A stretch of DNA of 47,006 nt from a virus (taxonomy: Duplodnaviria; Heunggongvirae; Uroviricota; Caudoviricetes): the IMG/VR virus record IMGVR_UViG_2925903241_000004; one strand, 5' to 3'. The position numbers and the translations under genes were made by a program. Position 1 is the stretch's first letter. Every line of letters begins with the position of its first letter. Below the pieces are notes generated by a model. The model was not told the DNA's origin. It ran no database searches and worked only from the letters and a program-made list of their open reading frames with translations. Of this stretch, positions 9,688-20,879 are shown one piece after another.

Positions 9688-9885
9688 GCGAGGTTAATTA
9701 TCAGGAAGGGCATGAAACGGCGGGGCAAGCAAAAACAGTGGCATGGCGATATCGCTACGTGAAAAAAAAGGCGTTACGGACTTTCAGGAGAAGTAGTGGT
9801 TGCGTATTACCGTGAAGGAGATCGGTGAGTAACATCGATGGAGATCGGTTCGTGTCACTTTCACAGAACCGTTTTTAAATTACCT

Positions 9886-10635
9886 TCACTGATCTCCTTC
9901 GGTCAACGGAGATTGTATTTTCCGCATTGATTCTCCTTTAAGTTCGATCTTGATACTGCCATGAACCAGTCGATCTAGGATGGCATCCGCATGTGTGGAG
10001 TCTCCGATCATTTTGTACCAGTTTTCCACCGGCAACTGGCTCACTACGATGATTGAGCCTCGTTGGTACATCAGATCCACTATTTCCAGCAGGTCGCTAC
10101 GCTGTTCTGATGAGAGAGGTTCCAGCCCCCAGTCATCCAGAAGCAGCAGATCGCTATTATTCAGCCTGGTCAAAAGTTTGCTGTATCTTCCATCAGCATG
10201 CCCCTGATAGCACTGTTCCATCAGCGCTTTAAGGCGATAATAGTAGACCTTGTATCCCTGTCGGCAGGCATTATGACCAAGTGCACATGCCAGGAACGTT
10301 TTACCGCTGCCGGTGGCCCCGGTCAGTAAAATATTTTGTTTCAGGGTTAACCAGTTTCCCTGACTGAGTGAACGGATGAGGGCCCTGTCCAGCCCTCTAT
10401 TGTTACGATAATCCAGCTTTGATAACTCAGCATTAAGTCTGAACCGTGCATGTTTGATCAGACGCTCTGCCTTCCTGTTTTCACGGCAGGTTAGTTCTTC
10501 TGCTGTCAGTAATGACAGGCGTTCTTCGAAGCCCAGCTCCTGGTATGTGCCCGGTTGAGCAAGTTGCTTTTTAAGCGCATCACGGAAGCCGGTGAGTTTA
10601 AGTGCGGTCAGTTGTTCGTAAAGATGATTCATCAT
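9886..10635 (-). CDS. istB: IS21-family helper ATPase IstB
   Basis: 249-aa ORF with Walker A (GATGSGKT) and DnaC/IstB-like layout; immediately downstream of istA. Confidence 0.9.
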   Translation of the reverse strand: MMNHLYEQLTALKLTGFRDALKKQLAQPGTYQELGFEERLSLLTAEELTCRENRKAERLIKHARFRLNAELSKLDYRNNRGLDRALIRSLSQGNWLTLKQNILLTGATGSGKTFLACALGHNACRQGYKVYYYRLKALMEQCYQGHADGRYSKLLTRLNNSDLLLLDDWGLEPLSSEQRSDLLEIVDLMYQRGSIIVVSQLPVENWYKMIGDSTHADAILDRLVHGSIKIELKGESMRKIQSPLTEGDQ

Positions 10636-10646
10636 TGGATCCCGTA

Positions 10647-12188
10647 TCAGTGGTAATACTCACTGCCGCGTACGTTTTCGTGTTCCATCGTGGATAACAG
10701 ATCTGGTTTTGGATCCTGAACAGGTTGTTTATCCAGACCTTTTTCCAGGATCGATTTAATACCTGACAGACGCCATACCTTTGTTTCCAGAGCTCTTGCA
10801 CATGCTGCATTAAGTCTGGCTTTACTGTATTTTTTATGAAGGTTCAGGAGTCCAAGGCAGAAGCGATAGCTTTGTTCCGGATGTGGACGAGAGTTCAGTA
10901 TATGAAGCACATAACTATGAGTTTCACTGCCTATGTGCCCCGCCCATTCCAGAAGACGCTCTGGCGTCCAGGTGGCATGCTGTCGATGAGCTTCAGGCAT
11001 GTGCTCGTTGCGGGTACTGTAGCCATAAGTACGCTTGCGCGGGTGCACAGCAACCTCCTGCCCCTGATTGAAGAGTCTTACCAGTTCTCCGGAGATCCAT
11101 GCTTCCAGTTGCTGGCCTAACAGCGAACATGGAACCGAGTAGTAATGTTTGTCGATTTCCACGTGGTAATCGGCATGAACTCTGACTTTCTTCACCAGGG
11201 TGTAACTGTAACTGGCTTCAGGAAGAGGCTTCAGTGCGGGTTTATCAAGCTGGATGAAGAGTTCTGCACGTGAATAACCCAACTTCTGCATTATTTTGTT
11301 ATTCAGTCTTTCCAGCAACTCCCGAATGCGCTGATTAAGCGATGCAAGGCTGTAGAAGATCTCATGCCTGATTCGGGCCATGATCCAGCGTTCAACAACC
11401 TGAACGCCAACTTCAGCTTTGGCTTTATCTTTCGGTTTACGTGGCCGCGCAGGCAAAACTGCGACATTATAATGCTCAAGCATCTGCTGGTAGGTAGGGT
11501 TAACGTCAGGATCATACTTACATGCCCTGGATGTGGCGCTTTTCAGATTGTCCGGAACAACAAGTTCAGGAACGCCACCCAACCACTGGAAGCAGCGAAC
11601 ATGACTCATCACCCAGTCTTCAAGCTGCTGAGACCAGGTGGCCTCTGCCCATGTGTAACTTGATGCCCCGAGAACAGCTACGATGACCTGAGCAGTTCTT
11701 ATTTCTCCGGTCTCAGGGTCGGTAACGCCAACGGTAGGTCCACAGTAATCAACGAAAAGTTTTTCGCCAGCTTTATGTACCTGACGCATTGATGGTGAAG
11801 TGGTTTTGAGCCATTCACGGTACATCCGGCAGTAATGGTTATAGCTGTAAAAACCGCCTGGATTACGCTCACAGTATTCTTCCCAGAGTAGCTGCAGCGT
11901 CACGCATTTATTACGCAGTTCCCGGTGTACTGTAGCCCAGTCAGGCAGAGAGTGCTTCTTCATCTTAACCTGGGTCTGAAGGAACGCATGTTTTAGTTTT
12001 GTATCATCCCATCCTGTAGGTAAGGGCCACTGCTTTATGCCAAGTTGAGCCGCCCGATTAGCATATCTGGATACAACGGAAGGGGAGATTGCAAGACTAC
12101 GACCAATTTGTCGATGGCTGAGTCCAACACCGTATTTAAGCCTAAGAATTTCTTTAAGTTTTCTCATAGAAATTGGAACTGTTGGCAT
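10647..12188 (-). CDS. istA: IS21-family transposase IstA
   Basis: 513-aa ORF with N-terminal HTH and DDE integrase-core-like region; paired with istB as in IS21-family elements. Confidence 0.9.
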   Translation of the reverse strand: MPTVPISMRKLKEILRLKYGVGLSHRQIGRSLAISPSVVSRYANRAAQLGIKQWPLPTGWDDTKLKHAFLQTQVKMKKHSLPDWATVHRELRNKCVTLQLLWEEYCERNPGGFYSYNHYCRMYREWLKTTSPSMRQVHKAGEKLFVDYCGPTVGVTDPETGEIRTAQVIVAVLGASSYTWAEATWSQQLEDWVMSHVRCFQWLGGVPELVVPDNLKSATSRACKYDPDVNPTYQQMLEHYNVAVLPARPRKPKDKAKAEVGVQVVERWIMARIRHEIFYSLASLNQRIRELLERLNNKIMQKLGYSRAELFIQLDKPALKPLPEASYSYTLVKKVRVHADYHVEIDKHYYSVPCSLLGQQLEAWISGELVRLFNQGQEVAVHPRKRTYGYSTRNEHMPEAHRQHATWTPERLLEWAGHIGSETHSYVLHILNSRPHPEQSYRFCLGLLNLHKKYSKARLNAACARALETKVWRLSGIKSILEKGLDKQPVQDPKPDLLSTMEHENVRGSEYYH

Positions 12189-12759
12189 AGGTATCCTTTA
12201 CCGGAATGGCAAAAGATACAGATCAACACACCTGTGAAGTTCCAATAACATTGATGGAGATCACTGAATAACAAAATGAGTCAAAAGTGATCTCCATCGA
12301 TGTTATTCAGCGATCTGTTCAAATGTTATTACCCGATCTCGATGGAAGTTATTGAGTGATCTCCTTTCATGAAAATACGCAGTAGTGGTCTGGTGACTGG
12401 AAATATGTACCGAAAAAAGAGGATTGTAACGACAGGCCGAACTATGAAATTCAGGCCTTATTCACTGCCCCGCCAGTCCCGGTTACATCAGAAGAACTGG
12501 TTAAAGCTGTGCACTTTTATGAACAACTAAAACGCGAAAATCCACCAGCATCCGGAAACCTGATTACAGATTCCCAGATAAGGCAATGAGCTACCTGGCG
12601 CAGAACGGGCTGATAAGTATGGGGAATGTTTTACGATGAATATTTAGACTAAAGAGTTTGTAACGCTATGTAAGTGATTTTTTCTGGTTTAGATATTTAT
12701 ATGTTCGGCCAAATTGAGGTGTGTTTAAATGTAATTGCACATTGATTGTAGGAGGAATA

Positions 12760-14860: not shown

Positions 14861-15241
14861 ATGACTGAACGCATAGAATTTGTTTTGCCTTACCCGCCGA
14901 CGGTGAATACCTACTGGCGACGTCATGGCAATACGTATTTCATCTCGGAGGCCGGAAAGCGTTATCGCCGTGATGTGGCGCTAATTGTTCGCCAGCAGCG
15001 GCTGAAATTAAACCTGTCCGGAAGGCTGGCGATAAAGGTGATTGCAGAGCCACCGGATAAGCGTCGTCGCGACCTGGACAATATCCTGAAAGCACCGCTG
15101 GATGCGCTGACGCATGCGGGAGTGTTAATGGACGATGAGCAGTTTGATGAAATCAATATCGTTCGTGGTCAGCCAGTATCTGGTGGACGTCTGGGGGTGA
15201 AGATTTACCCCATAATGCATGAAGAGCAGGTCAAAAAATGA
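14861..15241 (+). CDS. rusA: Holliday junction resolvase RusA
   Basis: 126-aa ORF; LPYPPTVNTYWR ... RRRDLDN motifs match the RusA family; start immediately follows the previous stop. Confidence 0.8.
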   Translation: MTERIEFVLPYPPTVNTYWRRHGNTYFISEAGKRYRRDVALIVRQQRLKLNLSGRLAIKVIAEPPDKRRRDLDNILKAPLDALTHAGVLMDDEQFDEINIVRGQPVSGGRLGVKIYPIMHEEQVKK

Positions 15242-16059
15242 AACTGGAAGATTTACCGAAATACTACTCCCCAAAATCCCCTGGCCTGACCGATGCATCG
15301 GCCTCAACGTCAAAAGATGCGCTGAGTATCACTGATGTGATGGCCGCGCAGGGCATGACACAGAATCGGGCTGAGATGGGGTTTTCTGCGTTCCTGGGGA
15401 AAATGGGCATCAGTATGAATGACAGGGCGCGGGCAACAGAATTACTGGCAGATTATGCACTCAGTCGGTGCGATCGTGTTGCGGCGTTGAGAAAACTTCC
15501 GGCAGAAATAAAACCGTTAGTGATGCGCATTATGGCTTCGTACGCTTTTGAGGATTATGCCCGCAGCGCAGCGAGTAAAAAGCAGTGCCCTTGTTGCTAT
15601 GGGGAAAAATTTATTGAAAGCGTAGTTTTTACAAACAAGGTCCAGTATCCGGATGGTAAGCCGCCGGTATGGGCAAAGTGTACGAAAGGTGTGTATTCGT
15701 CTTACTGGGAAGAATGGAAAAAAGTCAGGGAGGTGGTAAAAGTTGCCTGTCCGGAGTGTGGCGGAAAGGGTGAGGTTTCCACCGCCTGTAAGGATTGCCG
15801 TGGGCGTGGTGTCGCCATTCATCGTGAAGAGTCGGTAAAACGTGGTATGCCTGTTATCAGAGACTGCCAGCGTTGTGGTGGTCGTGGCTATGAAAGACTA
15901 CCATCAACGGAGACATTTAATGCTATATGCGAGGTGACAAACCAGATAACACGCGCGTCATGGGAAAAAACAGTTAAGAAATTCTATGATGCGCTGGTGA
16001 CCCGGTTTGATATTGAAGAAGCATGGGCTGAGCGGCAGTTAAAAAAGGTAACTAGGTAA
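15238..16059 (+). CDS. Late-gene antiterminator Q-like protein (QuuQ-like) with CxxCxGxG zinc-finger repeats
   Basis: 273-aa ORF overlapping the rusA stop (ATGA); last regulatory gene before pR'/tR', the tRNA and the lysis genes; several CxxC pairs (CPECGGKG, CKDCRGRG, CQRCGGRG). Confidence 0.65.
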   Translation: MKLEDLPKYYSPKSPGLTDASASTSKDALSITDVMAAQGMTQNRAEMGFSAFLGKMGISMNDRARATELLADYALSRCDRVAALRKLPAEIKPLVMRIMASYAFEDYARSAASKKQCPCCYGEKFIESVVFTNKVQYPDGKPPVWAKCTKGVYSSYWEEWKKVREVVKVACPECGGKGEVSTACKDCRGRGVAIHREESVKRGMPVIRDCQRCGGRGYERLPSTETFNAICEVTNQITRASWEKTVKKFYDALVTRFDIEEAWAERQLKKVTR

Positions 16060-16202: not shown

Positions 16203-16278
16203 GGCCCTTTAGCTCAGTGGTGAGAGCGAGCGACTCATAATCGCCAGGTCGCTGGTTCAAATCCAGCAAGGGCCACCA
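16203..16278 (+). tRNA. ileZ: tRNA with anticodon CAT, tRNA-Ile2 (ileZ/ileX-like) by similarity
   Basis: 76-nt cloverleaf folded by hand: acceptor GGCCCTT/AAGGGCC, D-stem GCTC/GAGC, anticodon loop CTCATAA, T-arm GCTGG-TTCAAAT-CCAGC, discriminator A and encoded CCA. Confidence 0.9.
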
Positions 16279-16599: not shown

Positions 16600-16820
16600 T
16601 CACAATTCCACAGCTTGATGATTGTCTGGCTGCCGGAGAATTTGTTAAAAATTACATCGCATGGTGAATCCCCCTCAGCGGCGGGGCATCTGGCAAAGTG
16701 TATGATCCAGAGAACATGCAAATTCAGTAGACAGGCTGAATTTACCGGGAGGCCCCTGGCACCATGCGACAGACAGAAATTAGGCTATACTTCAGCCCCT
16801 CTCCGGAGGGGCTTTTCTGT
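16600..16820 (+). repeat. Repeat unit A (promoter-like element ... strong terminator)
   Basis: Shares with unit B the blocks attgtctggc..cgg.ga.tttgttaaaaa..cgcatggtgaatccccct, gaattcaccgggaggc.cc.ggcaccatgc and terminal cagcccctctccggaggggct hairpin plus T-run. Confidence 0.5.
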
Positions 16821-17069
16821 GCAGGATGTGTCACAGTTTCCTGAATTCTGAGTACTGTCCTGTTACTCAGGGTGCTATATTTTCTGACGTGATGAAAGTC
16901 TGCCGGAAGGCGGAACGTATCGGAAATGACCCAGTAGAGAAAACGTTGACTCAGATACCGATGCTGAGTTACCGGGAAACCGGCATCACATGACCGCTAT
17001 CCTTCCAGGCTCGCTCCGGCGGGCCTTTTTACTGCAGAAAACAGTTTTCCCGTAAAATGCCACGTTGCT

Positions 17070-17285
17070 CATAATTCAGGCTGGCGATTATTGTCTGGCC
17101 GGCGGGAAGTTTGTTAAAAAATTTCGCATGGTGAATCCCCCTGTGCGGAGGGGTAATCAGCGAGTAGGTATATGGGATAATCGCGGATTCAGGTGCTGGT
17201 ACTGAATTCACCGGGAGGCACCCGGCACCATGCAATGGCACATAGCGCCACTCTCCAGCCCCTCTCCGGAGGGGCTGTTTATATT
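17070..17285 (+). repeat. Repeat unit B (second diverged copy of unit A)
   Basis: Same conserved blocks as unit A with different internal sequence; ends in an identical GCCCCTC-TCCG-GAGGGGC hairpin at 17258-17282. Confidence 0.5.
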
Positions 17286-17311
17286 GATTTTGTCAGATGT
17301 GAGTAAACTCC

Positions 17312-17647
17312 TTATGGACTTTGTTGTTTTAGTCCATAAGGACATATTTGCAGAATGCAACGGTTATTAAAGCATTCATTCAATACGTTATCTGTATTTG
17401 TAGGGCATTCCTGGCTGTTTTTGATTAAATTCCAGAATGTTTTATTGAATGGTACTACGTTGTAAATGGTTACAGGTAGCACTTTGTTATTGAGCATGAT
17501 ACCTGTGTGAGTCAGTGTAAATATACTTTCAGGAGGTAAGAAAGCATCCGATTGATACCAGATTATTAATTTTACTTTACTCCATATGACTGAAAAAGAT
17601 ATTCCGCATGATGGCTGGATAACTGTATCAATTACAATCCACTTCAT
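17312..17647 (-). CDS. Hypothetical Cys-rich protein encoded in AT-rich moron
   Basis: 111-aa ORF; ATG at 17647 preceded by AAGGAAG; low GC by eye (~35%) against ~50% flanks; six Cys concentrated in the C-terminal half; transcribed opposite to the late operon. Confidence 0.45.
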
Positions 17648-17907
17648 TTAGCTTCCTTGTTTATGCCTTGCTGGTGATGTTCTGAAAAGTATAAATGATA
17701 TTTTTGAATATAAACCATAGAGCAGAATTATTTTTCTGATGTTGTTTATTGTTTATTTAAATGCAGGGTGGTTTATATCTCGTCTTGTAGTTTATCCATG
17801 CATATCTGCTTGATGATCAGGTTTCTATTTAAGGTATGGTTTTGTGTTTTTTCTGTGTTACATGTCTGGTATTTTAAAGAATTATTTTTCAGATGGTGGA
17901 AAGAACC

Positions 17908-18096
17908 ATGGCATTTAAACACTATGATGTTGTCAGGGCGGCGCCGCCGTCAGATCTTGCGGAAAAGCTGACACATAAACTGAAAGAGGGCTGGCAGCCG
18001 TTTGGTAGTCCGGTGGCCATAACCCCTTATACCCTGATGCAGGCGATTGCAGCAGAAGGTGATGTGGTGGTCAGTGGTGCAACTGAGCCGGAGTGA
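17908..18096 (+). CDS. DUF1737-like small protein upstream of lysis genes
   Basis: 62-aa ORF (MAFKHYDVVRAAPPSDLAEKL...) in the position where such small proteins precede the holin in lambdoid prophages; an alternative ATG lies at 17893. Confidence 0.5.
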   Translation: MAFKHYDVVRAAPPSDLAEKLTHKLKEGWQPFGSPVAITPYTLMQAIAAEGDVVVSGATEPE

Positions 18097-18403
18097 TACT
18101 ACGTCATCGTACTGGCCCGGCATTCCAGACCATAAAAGACGGTCTGGCAGTGGGACTAAATGCACTGACGCTGACGGATATTACCAAAAATGCAACGTAT
18201 GGCGTTGAGATAGAAAGTCTGGTGCTGGAGATAAATACACCGGCATCATCATAAAAAGTGAGCCAGTCAAATGGAAGGTATCGTTAAACTCACCGGTAGT
18301 GTCAGTGGATCGTCTGAGACGCTTGCATGAGTTATCAGAGCCATCAGTAGTTAACTGGTGGCTTTTTTATTGTTGTCAGCTTCCGGATAACGGGAGACGG
18401 GGT

Positions 18404-18619
18404 ATGGACCAGATGGAAAAAATCACAACAGGTGTGTCATACACCACGTCAGCGGTGGGAACGGGCTACTGGTTCCTGCAGTTGCTGGACAGGGTTTCCC
18501 CGTCTCAGTGGGCGGCAATAGGCGTGCTGGGGAGTCTGCTGTTTGGGCTGCTGACATATCTGACTAACCTGTATTTCAAAATCAGAGAGGACCGTCGTAA
18601 GGCGGCACGGGGAGAGTAA
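18404..18619 (+). CDS. Class II holin / pinholin (S21-like) with dual-start motif
   Basis: 71-aa product [71 protein letters not shown] matches phage 21 S-type pinholins; two Met within the first four codons. Confidence 0.85.
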
Positions 18620-18623
18620 TTCA

Positions 18624-18974
18624 ATGACTCAAAACTATGAACTGATTGTGAAAGGGATCCGCAATTTTGAGAATAAAGTTACGGTAACTTTAGCGTTACG
18701 GGACAAAAAACGCTTTGACGGTGAAATTTTTGACCTGGACATCTCGCTGGACCGTGTTGAAGGTGCCGCGCTGGAGTTTTATGAGGCAGCAGCCAGAATG
18801 AGTATCAGACAGGTCTTCCTGGATGTTGCTGCCGGGTTATGTGAAGGGGATGAGCAGTCGCCGGAAAAGCGCCCCGTAATTTTAGAGGCGCAGAATGTAT
18901 GGATAACCTACAAAGGAAAGCTACCGGGAAGAATTACTGGTTCTCTGAAGACTCCTCCGGAATCACAACCTTAA
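18624..18974 (+). CDS. Hypothetical protein inserted between holin and endolysin
   Basis: 116-aa ORF with GGGAGAG RBS 7 nt before ATG 18624; no recognisable family; unusual position inside the lysis cassette. Confidence 0.5.
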   Translation: MTQNYELIVKGIRNFENKVTVTLALRDKKRFDGEIFDLDISLDRVEGAALEFYEAAARMSIRQVFLDVAAGLCEGDEQSPEKRPVILEAQNVWITYKGKLPGRITGSLKTPPESQP

Positions 18975-19037: not shown

Positions 19038-19571
19038 ATGAACGCAAAAATCAGATACGGCCTGTCGGCTGCCGTTCTGGCACTGATTGCCGTCGGTGCG
19101 CCCGCGCCTGATATTCTCGACCAGTTTCTGGATGAAAAAGAAGGTAACCACACAACGGCATACCGCGATGGGTCCGGCATCTGGACCATCTGTCGGGGTG
19201 CCACGATGGTGGATGGAAAACCCGTTTTTCCCGGTATGAAACTGTCGAAGGAAAAATGCGACCAGGTCAACGCCATTGAGCGTGATAAGGCGCTGGCATG
19301 GGTGGAGCGCAATATTAAAGTACTACTGACCGAACCACAAAAAGCGGGTATAGCGTCATTCTGTCCCTATAACATTGGCCCCGGTAAGTGTTTCCCGTCG
19401 ACGTTTTATAAGCGGCTGAATGCCGGTGATCGTAAGGGCGCATGCGAGGCGATTCGCTGGTGGATAAAAGATGGTGGGCGCGATTGCCGCATACGTTCAA
19501 ATAACTGCTATGGACAGGTTATTCGTCGTGACCAGGAAAGCGCATTAGCCTGTTGGGGGATAGAGCAGTGA
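19038..19571 (+). CDS. SAR endolysin (lysozyme, R21-like)
   Basis: 177-aa ORF; N-terminal hydrophobic, Gly/Ala-rich signal-anchor-release segment followed by a phage lysozyme-like domain; follows the pinholin. Confidence 0.85.
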
Positions 19572-20060: not shown

Positions 20061-20354
20061 TTATTGTGAGCAATACACACGCGCTTCCAGTGGAGTATAA
20101 ATGCCTAAAGTAATAAAACCGAGAAATCCATTTACGAATGTTTGCTGGGTTTCTGTTTTAACAACATTTTCTGCGCCGCCACAAATTTTGGCTGCATCAA
20201 CAGTTTTCTCCTGTCCAATTCCCGAAACGAAGAAATGATGGGTGATGGTTTCCTTTGGTGTTACTGCTGTCGGTTTGTTTCCAACAGTAAACGTCTGTTG
20301 AGCACATCCTGTAATAAGCATTGCCAGAGCGGCAGAAAACAACATTTTTTTCAT
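20061..20354 (-). CDS. bor: Bor lipoprotein (serum-resistance-associated)
   Basis: 97-aa product MKKMLFSAALAMLITGCAQQTFTVGNKP... closely matches lambda Bor; lipobox LITGC. Confidence 0.9.
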   Translation of the reverse strand: MKKMLFSAALAMLITGCAQQTFTVGNKPTAVTPKETITHHFFVSGIGQEKTVDAAKICGGAENVVKTETQQTFVNGFLGFITLGIYTPLEARVYCSQ

Positions 20355-20879
20355 CTTATTATCCTGCATTGTTAAAAACGGCAGAATCCTATGTGACAAC
20401 AATTAAACGATAGTTAAATGGATTGATGAAAATTAAAACTATATAGGTGGATGCTCAGCCTATTGGAGGTAGTCAGGATTTGAATGTCAGTCTGTTGTCG
20501 GCATTCTGGCAATGCAATTTGGATAAAGCGGGGATTAAAAAGATAGAGGCGAGCCGGTCAGGTAGAAATGAATCAGGCTCAAAGTGAAGCGGAAAAGGTC
20601 TGTGGCACAAGCTGATGCAGCCATAATTACAGCCTGATGATTTGTGGAATGAAACATGTTGAACCTCCTTAATTGATGTTATTCGAGTGATGAAGGCATT
20701 CTGTCCTTCTATAGTGTCCAGTAAATCAAACAGGAAACTTGTCCAACGTGTTGGACAAGCCTCTCCATTAGTGAGTTGTATTGATCACAACTCTACAAAG
20801 AATTCATTACTGGGTAGATGAAAATAGTTTCACTATGAATGGAGGAGGCTATGTCGGTGGCTTCTTCATTGGAGTACAT

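Follow-up and report, generated by a model that had tools for sequence, protein, structure and literature searches.

iraL in the stx-type cargo slot of a potB prophage, a gene very probably encoding a sigma-S-stabilizing RssB anti-adaptor

The 47,006-nt stretch of DNA analyzed here (the window) carries a lambdoid prophage that is integrated at potB and adjoins potC/potD, as in Escherichia coli CFT073. The window and CFT073 show synteny, with the common gene order int(potB)...Q, tRNA(s), DUF3927, iraL on the minus strand, a DUF1737 remnant, holin, YdfR, and lysozyme. The two prophages also differ: the window has one tRNA where CFT073 has Ile-Arg-Arg tRNAs and an IS200, its head genes are of the HK97 type rather than the lambda type, and it holds an extra IS21-family element. 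A prophage in E. coli M217 is about 100% identical to the window except for this element. The insertion spans 9801–12380, encodes IstA (10647–12188) and IstB (9886–10635), both on the minus strand, and is absent from M217. The single tRNA (16203–16278, plus strand) has the anticodon CAT and is called Met by ARAGORN and Ile (lysidine type) by RefSeq. A second minus-strand moron at 20061–20402, after the Rz/lysis genes, encodes a Bor/Iss serum-survival lipoprotein within a GC patch of about 0.40. Features of the iraL region are collected in Table 1.

Table 1. Features at and around iraL, in window coordinates.
Feature	Position	Strand	Basis or remark
Q antiterminator (Pfam Antiterm)	15238–16059	+	late gene; iraL antisense
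iraL cassette, extent	17236–17907		PPyecE_EH1910/H-19B align up to 17235/17153 and resume at 17908
GC-rich hairpin, 35 nt past the iraL stop	17256–17277		terminator scan; canonical for the plus strand only (3' end of an STnc100 copy)
iraL CDS, 111 aa	17312–17647	-	ORF listing; ATG start, TAA stop
iraL 5' UTR and AT-rich upstream region, GC about 0.30	17648–17907	-	composition; ends at the start of the nanS-p remnant
Shine-Dalgarno AAGGA	17654–17658	-	6 nt 5' of the iraL ATG; read off the sequence
Transcription start (+1), by homology	17680	-	exact match to the mapped CFT073 5' end from 17680; 33-nt 5' UTR
-10 hexamer TATACT (-13 to -8)	17688–17693	-	identical in window, CFT073, O104:H4, and ST131; position relative to the start site inferred
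Likely -35 hexamer TTTATA	17709–17714	-	polymorphic base 17710; 15-nt spacer; TTTACA in CFT073
Candidate PhoP-box-like direct repeat TGTTTA-N5-TATTTA	17743–17759	+	reverse orientation, -63 to -79 of iraL
Holin, P21-type	18404–18619	+	late gene; iraL antisense
YdfR-like	18624–18974	+	late gene; iraL antisense
Lysozyme	19038–19571	+	late gene; iraL antisense

The stretch that an earlier note on this DNA had called a repeat region is a duplication of the prophage sRNA STnc100 (RF02076). Rfam matches on the plus strand lie at 16629–16822 and 17098–17286 (138 and 132.5 bits), with a weak copy at 16858–17033. The copies have a spacing of about 467 bp, each ends in a GC hairpin followed by a T-run, and the terminator of the last copy abuts the iraL stop codon. 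The terminator scan returned no canonical terminator in the direction of iraL, in which the hairpin past its stop lacks a T-run. This hairpin may also stop iraL transcription.

The 111-aa minus-strand ORF with a good ribosome-binding site that the earlier note described is present in the ORF listing, and its AAGGA motif lies at a spacing of 6 nt from the ATG. GC content is 0.339 in the ORF (GC3 0.32) and 0.296 in 17648–17890, whereas the window averages 0.506 and the 200-bp segments on either side about 0.53, in agreement with the low GC and AT-rich upstream region noted before. The AT-rich island around iraL is about 670 bp long and has a GC content of 0.32, against 0.51 for the window. Transcription of the ORF against the late operon is likewise borne out, as Q, the holin, the YdfR-like gene, and the lysozyme all lie on the plus strand. 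Purifying selection is evident in the dN/dS of the window gene, which is 0.14–0.17 against its paralogues and 0.25 against CFT073 iraL. Because of the dN/dS of 0.14–0.17, and because the same DNA is annotated as a CDS in E. coli genomes, the sequence evidence is that the ORF is a real gene, and a chance reading frame is excluded.

iraL is a lambdoid-phage moron: it has its own promoter and an atypical GC content, is inserted between phage genes, and is absent from sibling phages. The cassette is placed at about 17236–17907 because, in phages without iraL, the alignment with the window breaks off at 17235 or 17153 and resumes at 17908. The island of 17312–17890 drawn in the earlier note is thus real, with boundaries that are slightly wider than it gave. 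That note had also suggested comparing this position across related prophages. In this comparison, siblings join without the gene at 17235/17908, and in some Stx2a phages a paralogue fills the slot, adjacent to stx2AB.

The description of the locus as a classic cargo position between Q and the holin is right, because the iraL slot is the stx slot. In the Stx2a phage Stx2_EH1910, an iraM-like gene in minus orientation is flanked by stx2B and nanS-p, and in H-19B the stx1 genes end just ahead of the sequence held in common with the window. AT-rich composition, an own promoter, and antisense orientation complete the picture of a moron in this position. From 17908 on, the window corresponds to the beginning of the nanS-p/yjhS sialate O-acetylesterase gene and then skips about 1.49 kb relative to PPyecE_EH1910. 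The 'DUF1737' ORF (17908–18254) is therefore a 5' remnant of nanS-p/yjhS, and its true start is probably the ATG at 17908 rather than 17893. Upstream of iraL, a 21-nt direct repeat occurs at 17724–17744 and 17878–17898 (AGAATTATTTTTCTGATGTTG and AGAATTATTTTTCAGATGGTG), 154 nt apart, the second one reaching into the first bases of the DUF1737 ORF. The repeat may be a recombination scar from insertion of the cassette.

Judged by homology, the 111-aa gene is iraL, an already known, prophage-borne paralogue of iraM whose product is an RssB anti-adaptor. The protein matches the NCBIfam model NF007393 (IraM) over its full length, scoring 162 bits (E = 4.7e-48) where the cut-off is 121, which places it in this family. 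It is identical to CFT073 IraL (c1429, WP_000871291.1) at 109 of 111 residues (98%), with I25V and T99I as the differences. At the nucleotide level, the CDSs of the window and CFT073 differ at 4 of 336 nt (98.8% identity), the regions from -100 to +33 differ at 4 of 133 nt (97.0% identity), and 761 nt centered on iraL contain 14 differences, 4 of them inside the CDS. Hryckowian et al. 2014 (PMC4045071) described IraL as an IraM paralogue that the uropathogenic E. coli strain CFT073 encodes on its potB genomic island, and as an operational definition they required iraL to be at least 95% identical in the CDS and at least 96% identical in the promoter. With a CDS identity of 98.8%, a promoter identity of 97.0%, and the mapped start-site sequence present, the window gene is iraL under this definition. 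The two loci hold the same gene in the same potB prophage, with the same neighbors, orientation, and mapped 5' end sequence. In addition to the two residues, they differ in the likely -35 hexamer (TTTACA in CFT073, TTTATA in the window), at -1 (G and A, respectively), and at 2 nt beside the Shine-Dalgarno motif, where the region reads AAGGAAACCAAATG in CFT073 and AAGGAAGCTAAATG in the window.

The earlier note could not place the protein in any family, but the NF007393 score and the near identity to CFT073 IraL do so, and RefSeq already names the gene. Pfam-A scans of the window protein and three homologues gave no match even at E ≤ 10; the family emerged from NCBIfam, the PDB, and RefSeq annotation. 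The RefSeq label on matches of the window gene is 'anti-adapter protein IraM'. Assignment as iraM proper, the K-12 orthologue, which calls for at least 95% identity to K-12 iraM and its PhoP-dependent promoter context, was nevertheless rejected: identity to K-12 iraM is 71% for nucleotides and 63% for amino acids, there is no similarity upstream, and the gene is a paralogue despite its label. A megablast search with 17250–17950 against 5426 complete E. coli genomes matched 2008, of which 1427 matched over at least 80% of the query, and iraL is present in 1427–1429 of these genomes (~26%).

K-12 IraM (YcgW) is a PhoP-dependent anti-adaptor of Mg2+ starvation for which a structure is available (8TWD). 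It belongs to the same family as IraL and has the same fold, the same five cysteines, and the cluster of contacts to the RssB N-terminal domain (NTD), while IraL has 4 extra C-terminal residues. Similarity between the two genes is restricted to the CDS, the promoter regions being unrelated, and the K-12 gene adjoins the e14 remnant, whereas iraL lies in a late-operon slot. A closer relative in position is the iraM-like gene of Stx2_EH1910 (BCI50065.1), which occupies the same slot as iraL in the same minus orientation and encodes a 107-aa protein with 73% amino acid identity. Upstream, the two genes share homologous sequence (72% nucleotide identity) that takes in the -10 hexamer and the PhoP-like repeat. 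The Stx2_EH1910 phage also carries stx2AB and an intact gene for the nanS-p esterase.

Structure prediction of the protein, which the earlier note had also proposed, leads to the IraM fold. By sequence, the protein matches crystallized IraM(1-78) (PDB 8twd_A; E = 9e-32, 64% identity). AlphaFold2 (AF2) modeling on a shallow, Escherichia-only alignment gave an unusable pLDDT of 37; a diverse 37-sequence alignment was used instead and gave a model with a pLDDT of 87.6. The top Foldseek match of this model is again 8twd_A, with an rmsd of 1.2 Å over 78 columns and a TM score of 0.90, followed by PmrD. The model has the antiparallel beta-barrel, beta-hairpin, and C-terminal helix of 8TWD.

Three contact clusters have been defined in the IraM–RssB structure, of which cluster I (I4, I6, W22, K26, I42) contacts the RssB receiver domain (PMC10844676). 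The window protein retains all five cluster I residues. In clusters II and III, which contact the RssB C-terminal domain and linker, it has the conservative changes T13S, L75I, H63N, and I64V. While IraM contacts both RssB domains, IraL interacts with RssB through the N-terminal receiver domain only (PMC4045071). The retention of cluster I and the changes in clusters II and III are consistent with such NTD-only binding, a connection that is inferred from the aligned residues.

Experimental work on CFT073 IraL informs what the window gene may do. IraL–RssB binding was detected by two-hybrid assay and pull-down, deletion of iraL leaves log-phase cells with less sigma-S, whose half-life drops by half (about 5 min to about 2.5 min), and single-copy iraL complementation restores sigma-S stability (PMC4045071). 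The CFT073 iraL mRNA is higher at 37 °C than at 23 °C by 1.6 log2 units (PMC12890032), and IraL is raised in a fur mutant (PMC7157518). By analogy, the window allele, with V25, I99, and the -35 variant, would be expressed and act as that of CFT073 does. In the lysogen, where the late operon is silent, iraL would be read antisense to it from a sigma-70 promoter of its own. Judging from the homologous CFT073 protein, the product, a PmrD-like beta-barrel and helix with a Cys4 tail, would bind the receiver domain of the ClpXP adaptor RssB and so keep RssB from handing sigma-S (RpoS) over to ClpXP. In exponential phase, sigma-S would then be stable, leaving the host pre-armed for stress. During lytic growth, Q-antiterminated late transcription may interfere with iraL. 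Overall, the gene in the stx-type slot of this potB prophage is very probably an RssB-blocking, sigma-S-stabilizing anti-adaptor gene that acts in the lysogen.

We give very little credence to a different target, in which the protein would act as a PmrD-like connector on another response regulator, such as PmrA, and RssB would not be bound. Small size and a response regulator as binding partner are common to PmrD, IraM, and IraL, and PmrD shares the beta-barrel and helix fold of the model (Foldseek probability 1.0, TM 0.70–0.74 target-normalized); its structures (4hn7, 2jso, 2rqx) are the only structural neighbors after IraM. The homologue clusters of the protein also carry a precomputed tag for PF11183, which we take to be the PmrD family. 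This tag is present on all clusters (P0001–P0020), while local Pfam-A gives them no match at E ≤ 10, a discrepancy of version or threshold. The window protein itself lies outside PF11183 by sequence, with no local Pfam-A match at E ≤ 10 and only 12–21% identity to PmrD structures, against 65% to IraM. PmrD proteins (81–88 aa) lack the Cys4 tail, are not phage-borne, and protect phospho-PmrA, and both RssB binding and sigma-S stabilization are established for the 98%-identical protein of CFT073 (PMC4045071). The earlier suggestion of a toxin, secreted effector, or phage-exclusion factor of an uncharacterized kind is hardly credible. It draws on the cargo-slot position and low GC only, and has to contend with a specific family assignment, a characterized near-identical protein, and an IraM homologue that was crystallized as a soluble cytoplasmic complex with RssB (PMC10844676). 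The PADLOC defense scan returned no match for the window protein, and the PHROGs group to which it belongs, phrog_4407, has no assigned function. The anti-adaptor identity thus replaces this suggestion.

The 5' end of the CFT073 iraL mRNA was mapped by 5'-RACE to ACATCACCAGCAAGGCATAAACAAGGAA (PMC4045071), a sequence found unchanged in the window. An alignment of four alleles shows the likely -35 hexamer as TTTACA in CFT073 and O104:H4, TTTATA in the window, and TTTA-A in ST131 JJ2434. The O104:H4 allele has an additional T-to-A change directly downstream of this hexamer. The window hexamer agrees with the consensus at 4 of 6 positions, compared with 5 of 6 in CFT073, and the spacer is already short. 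The mapped promoter was missed by a consensus promoter scan because its 15-nt spacer falls outside the scan range. That scan instead reported TAAACA-17-AATAAT at 17755–17727, which is not regarded as the iraL promoter. Exact matches to the 59-nt promoter among 1429 iraL-carrying genomes number 283 for the window allele and 255 for the CFT073 allele.

These promoter data bear on whether the window gene, while being iraL, is weakly expressed or silent through the C-to-T change in the likely -35 hexamer and is cargo with little current effect on sigma-S. The change of TTTACA to TTTATA comes on top of the short spacer, the -35 site is a polymorphism hot spot with a 1-nt deletion in the ST131 allele, and the expression of -35-mutant iraL copies was explicitly left open (PMC4045071). 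We nonetheless consider a silent or weak allele unlikely, since the coding sequence is intact, the dN/dS against CFT073 is 0.25, the exact promoter allele is retained in 283 complete genomes, and the -10 hexamer, start site, and upstream A/T-rich region are unchanged.

A related question is whether iraL, on top of its anti-adaptor mechanism, is controlled by PhoP/PhoQ (low Mg2+ or acid) like K-12 iraM, which we think doubtful. Measured against the PhoP-box consensus quoted in PMC8355897, the TGTTTA-N5-TATTTA repeat is the only PhoP-box-like site with at most one mismatch in the 47-kb window, and when the 260-bp upstream region is dinucleotide-shuffled, 4% of the shuffles do as well. The site is identical in the four iraL alleles. 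In the Stx2a-phage paralogue, the aligned position of the 72%-identical upstream region has CGTTTA-N5-TGTTTA, again with one mismatch but not the same one. PhoP boxes in reverse orientation, at distances that vary, have been described (PMC8355897), and Mg2+ and PhoP were outside the experiments of PMC4045071. On the other side, a one-mismatch site in AT-rich DNA is weak support and the box is a candidate only, the upstream region has no detectable similarity to that of PhoP-dependent K-12 iraM, and IraL is active in unstressed log phase in LB (PMC4045071). Regulation of the K-12 iraM type by promoter homology was rejected, as the upstream regions are unrelated. No discussion of a possible PhoP box at iraL was found in the literature searched.

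The 'Cys-rich' label given to the protein by the earlier note is a moderate description only, as IraL has 5 cysteines in 111 residues (positions 14, 81, 92, 97, and 102). Their distribution can be followed across a broad family. A word-indexed homologue search returned Escherichia clusters only, whereas a profile search of 50%-identity representatives returned 93 proteins, about 45 of them full length. Sampled clusters named IraM come from Salmonella salamae, Citrobacter, Enterobacter, Intestinirhabdus, Dryocola, Cronobacter, and Klebsiella. A search for related loci with a closer alignment returned Escherichia, Shigella, and Citrobacter loci only. Distant IraM-family genes in E. coli ECGI0523 (CP178306.1, 1196360–1202677) and Citrobacter sp. 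ANG330 encode proteins with 33% and 53% identity to the window protein, respectively.

The family alignment comprises 37 representatives from at least 8 genera at 21–64% identity. Its only invariant columns are W72, C81, C97, and C102, with C92 conserved at 97%, while C14 is not conserved across the family. All 37 sequences have four or more cysteines in the tail, spaced as C-x9-12-C-x3-6-C-x4-C, one member having a longer first spacer, and the fuller motif is C-P-x9-12-C-x3-6-C-x4-C-P-Y-G. The same Cys4 tail is present in Salmonella RssC and other enterobacterial 'IraM' proteins (21–41% identity, about 110–125 aa), although RssC was not singled out among the representatives. RssC has been named as the Salmonella relative of IraL (PMC4045071). 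Mean conservation over the alignment is similar in the tail (0.44) and the core (0.46), and the AF2 pLDDT of the IraL tail is about 70–74.

In the IraM structure work, residues 79–107 were removed and the tail was called less conserved and flexible (PMC10844676). Those papers do not mention the cysteines or metal binding by IraM, and no discussion of a family-wide Cys4 tail was found in the literature searched. Truncated IraM still binds RssB (PMC10844676), so the Cys4 tail would need another purpose, such as sensing or turnover. On the strength of its conservation, we tentatively suggest, at somewhat less than even odds, that the C-terminal tail is a conserved four-cysteine module, which could bind a metal (Zn or an Fe-S cluster) or work as a redox switch governing how stable or active the anti-adaptor is.

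The identification of iraL is in itself an ordinary finding that opens no new question, as annotation pipelines already name the gene. The cysteine content is the one part of the earlier description that points to unexplored ground. iraL and its paralogues share a cargo slot with the Shiga toxin genes, and the polymorphism of the likely -35 hexamer among clinical lineages (TTTACA/TTTATA/TTTA-A) could explain differences between strains in log-phase RpoS. For the prophage itself, the question of an 'unknown cargo' is closed: the gene is that of a published regulator by which the prophage would raise the general stress response of its host.
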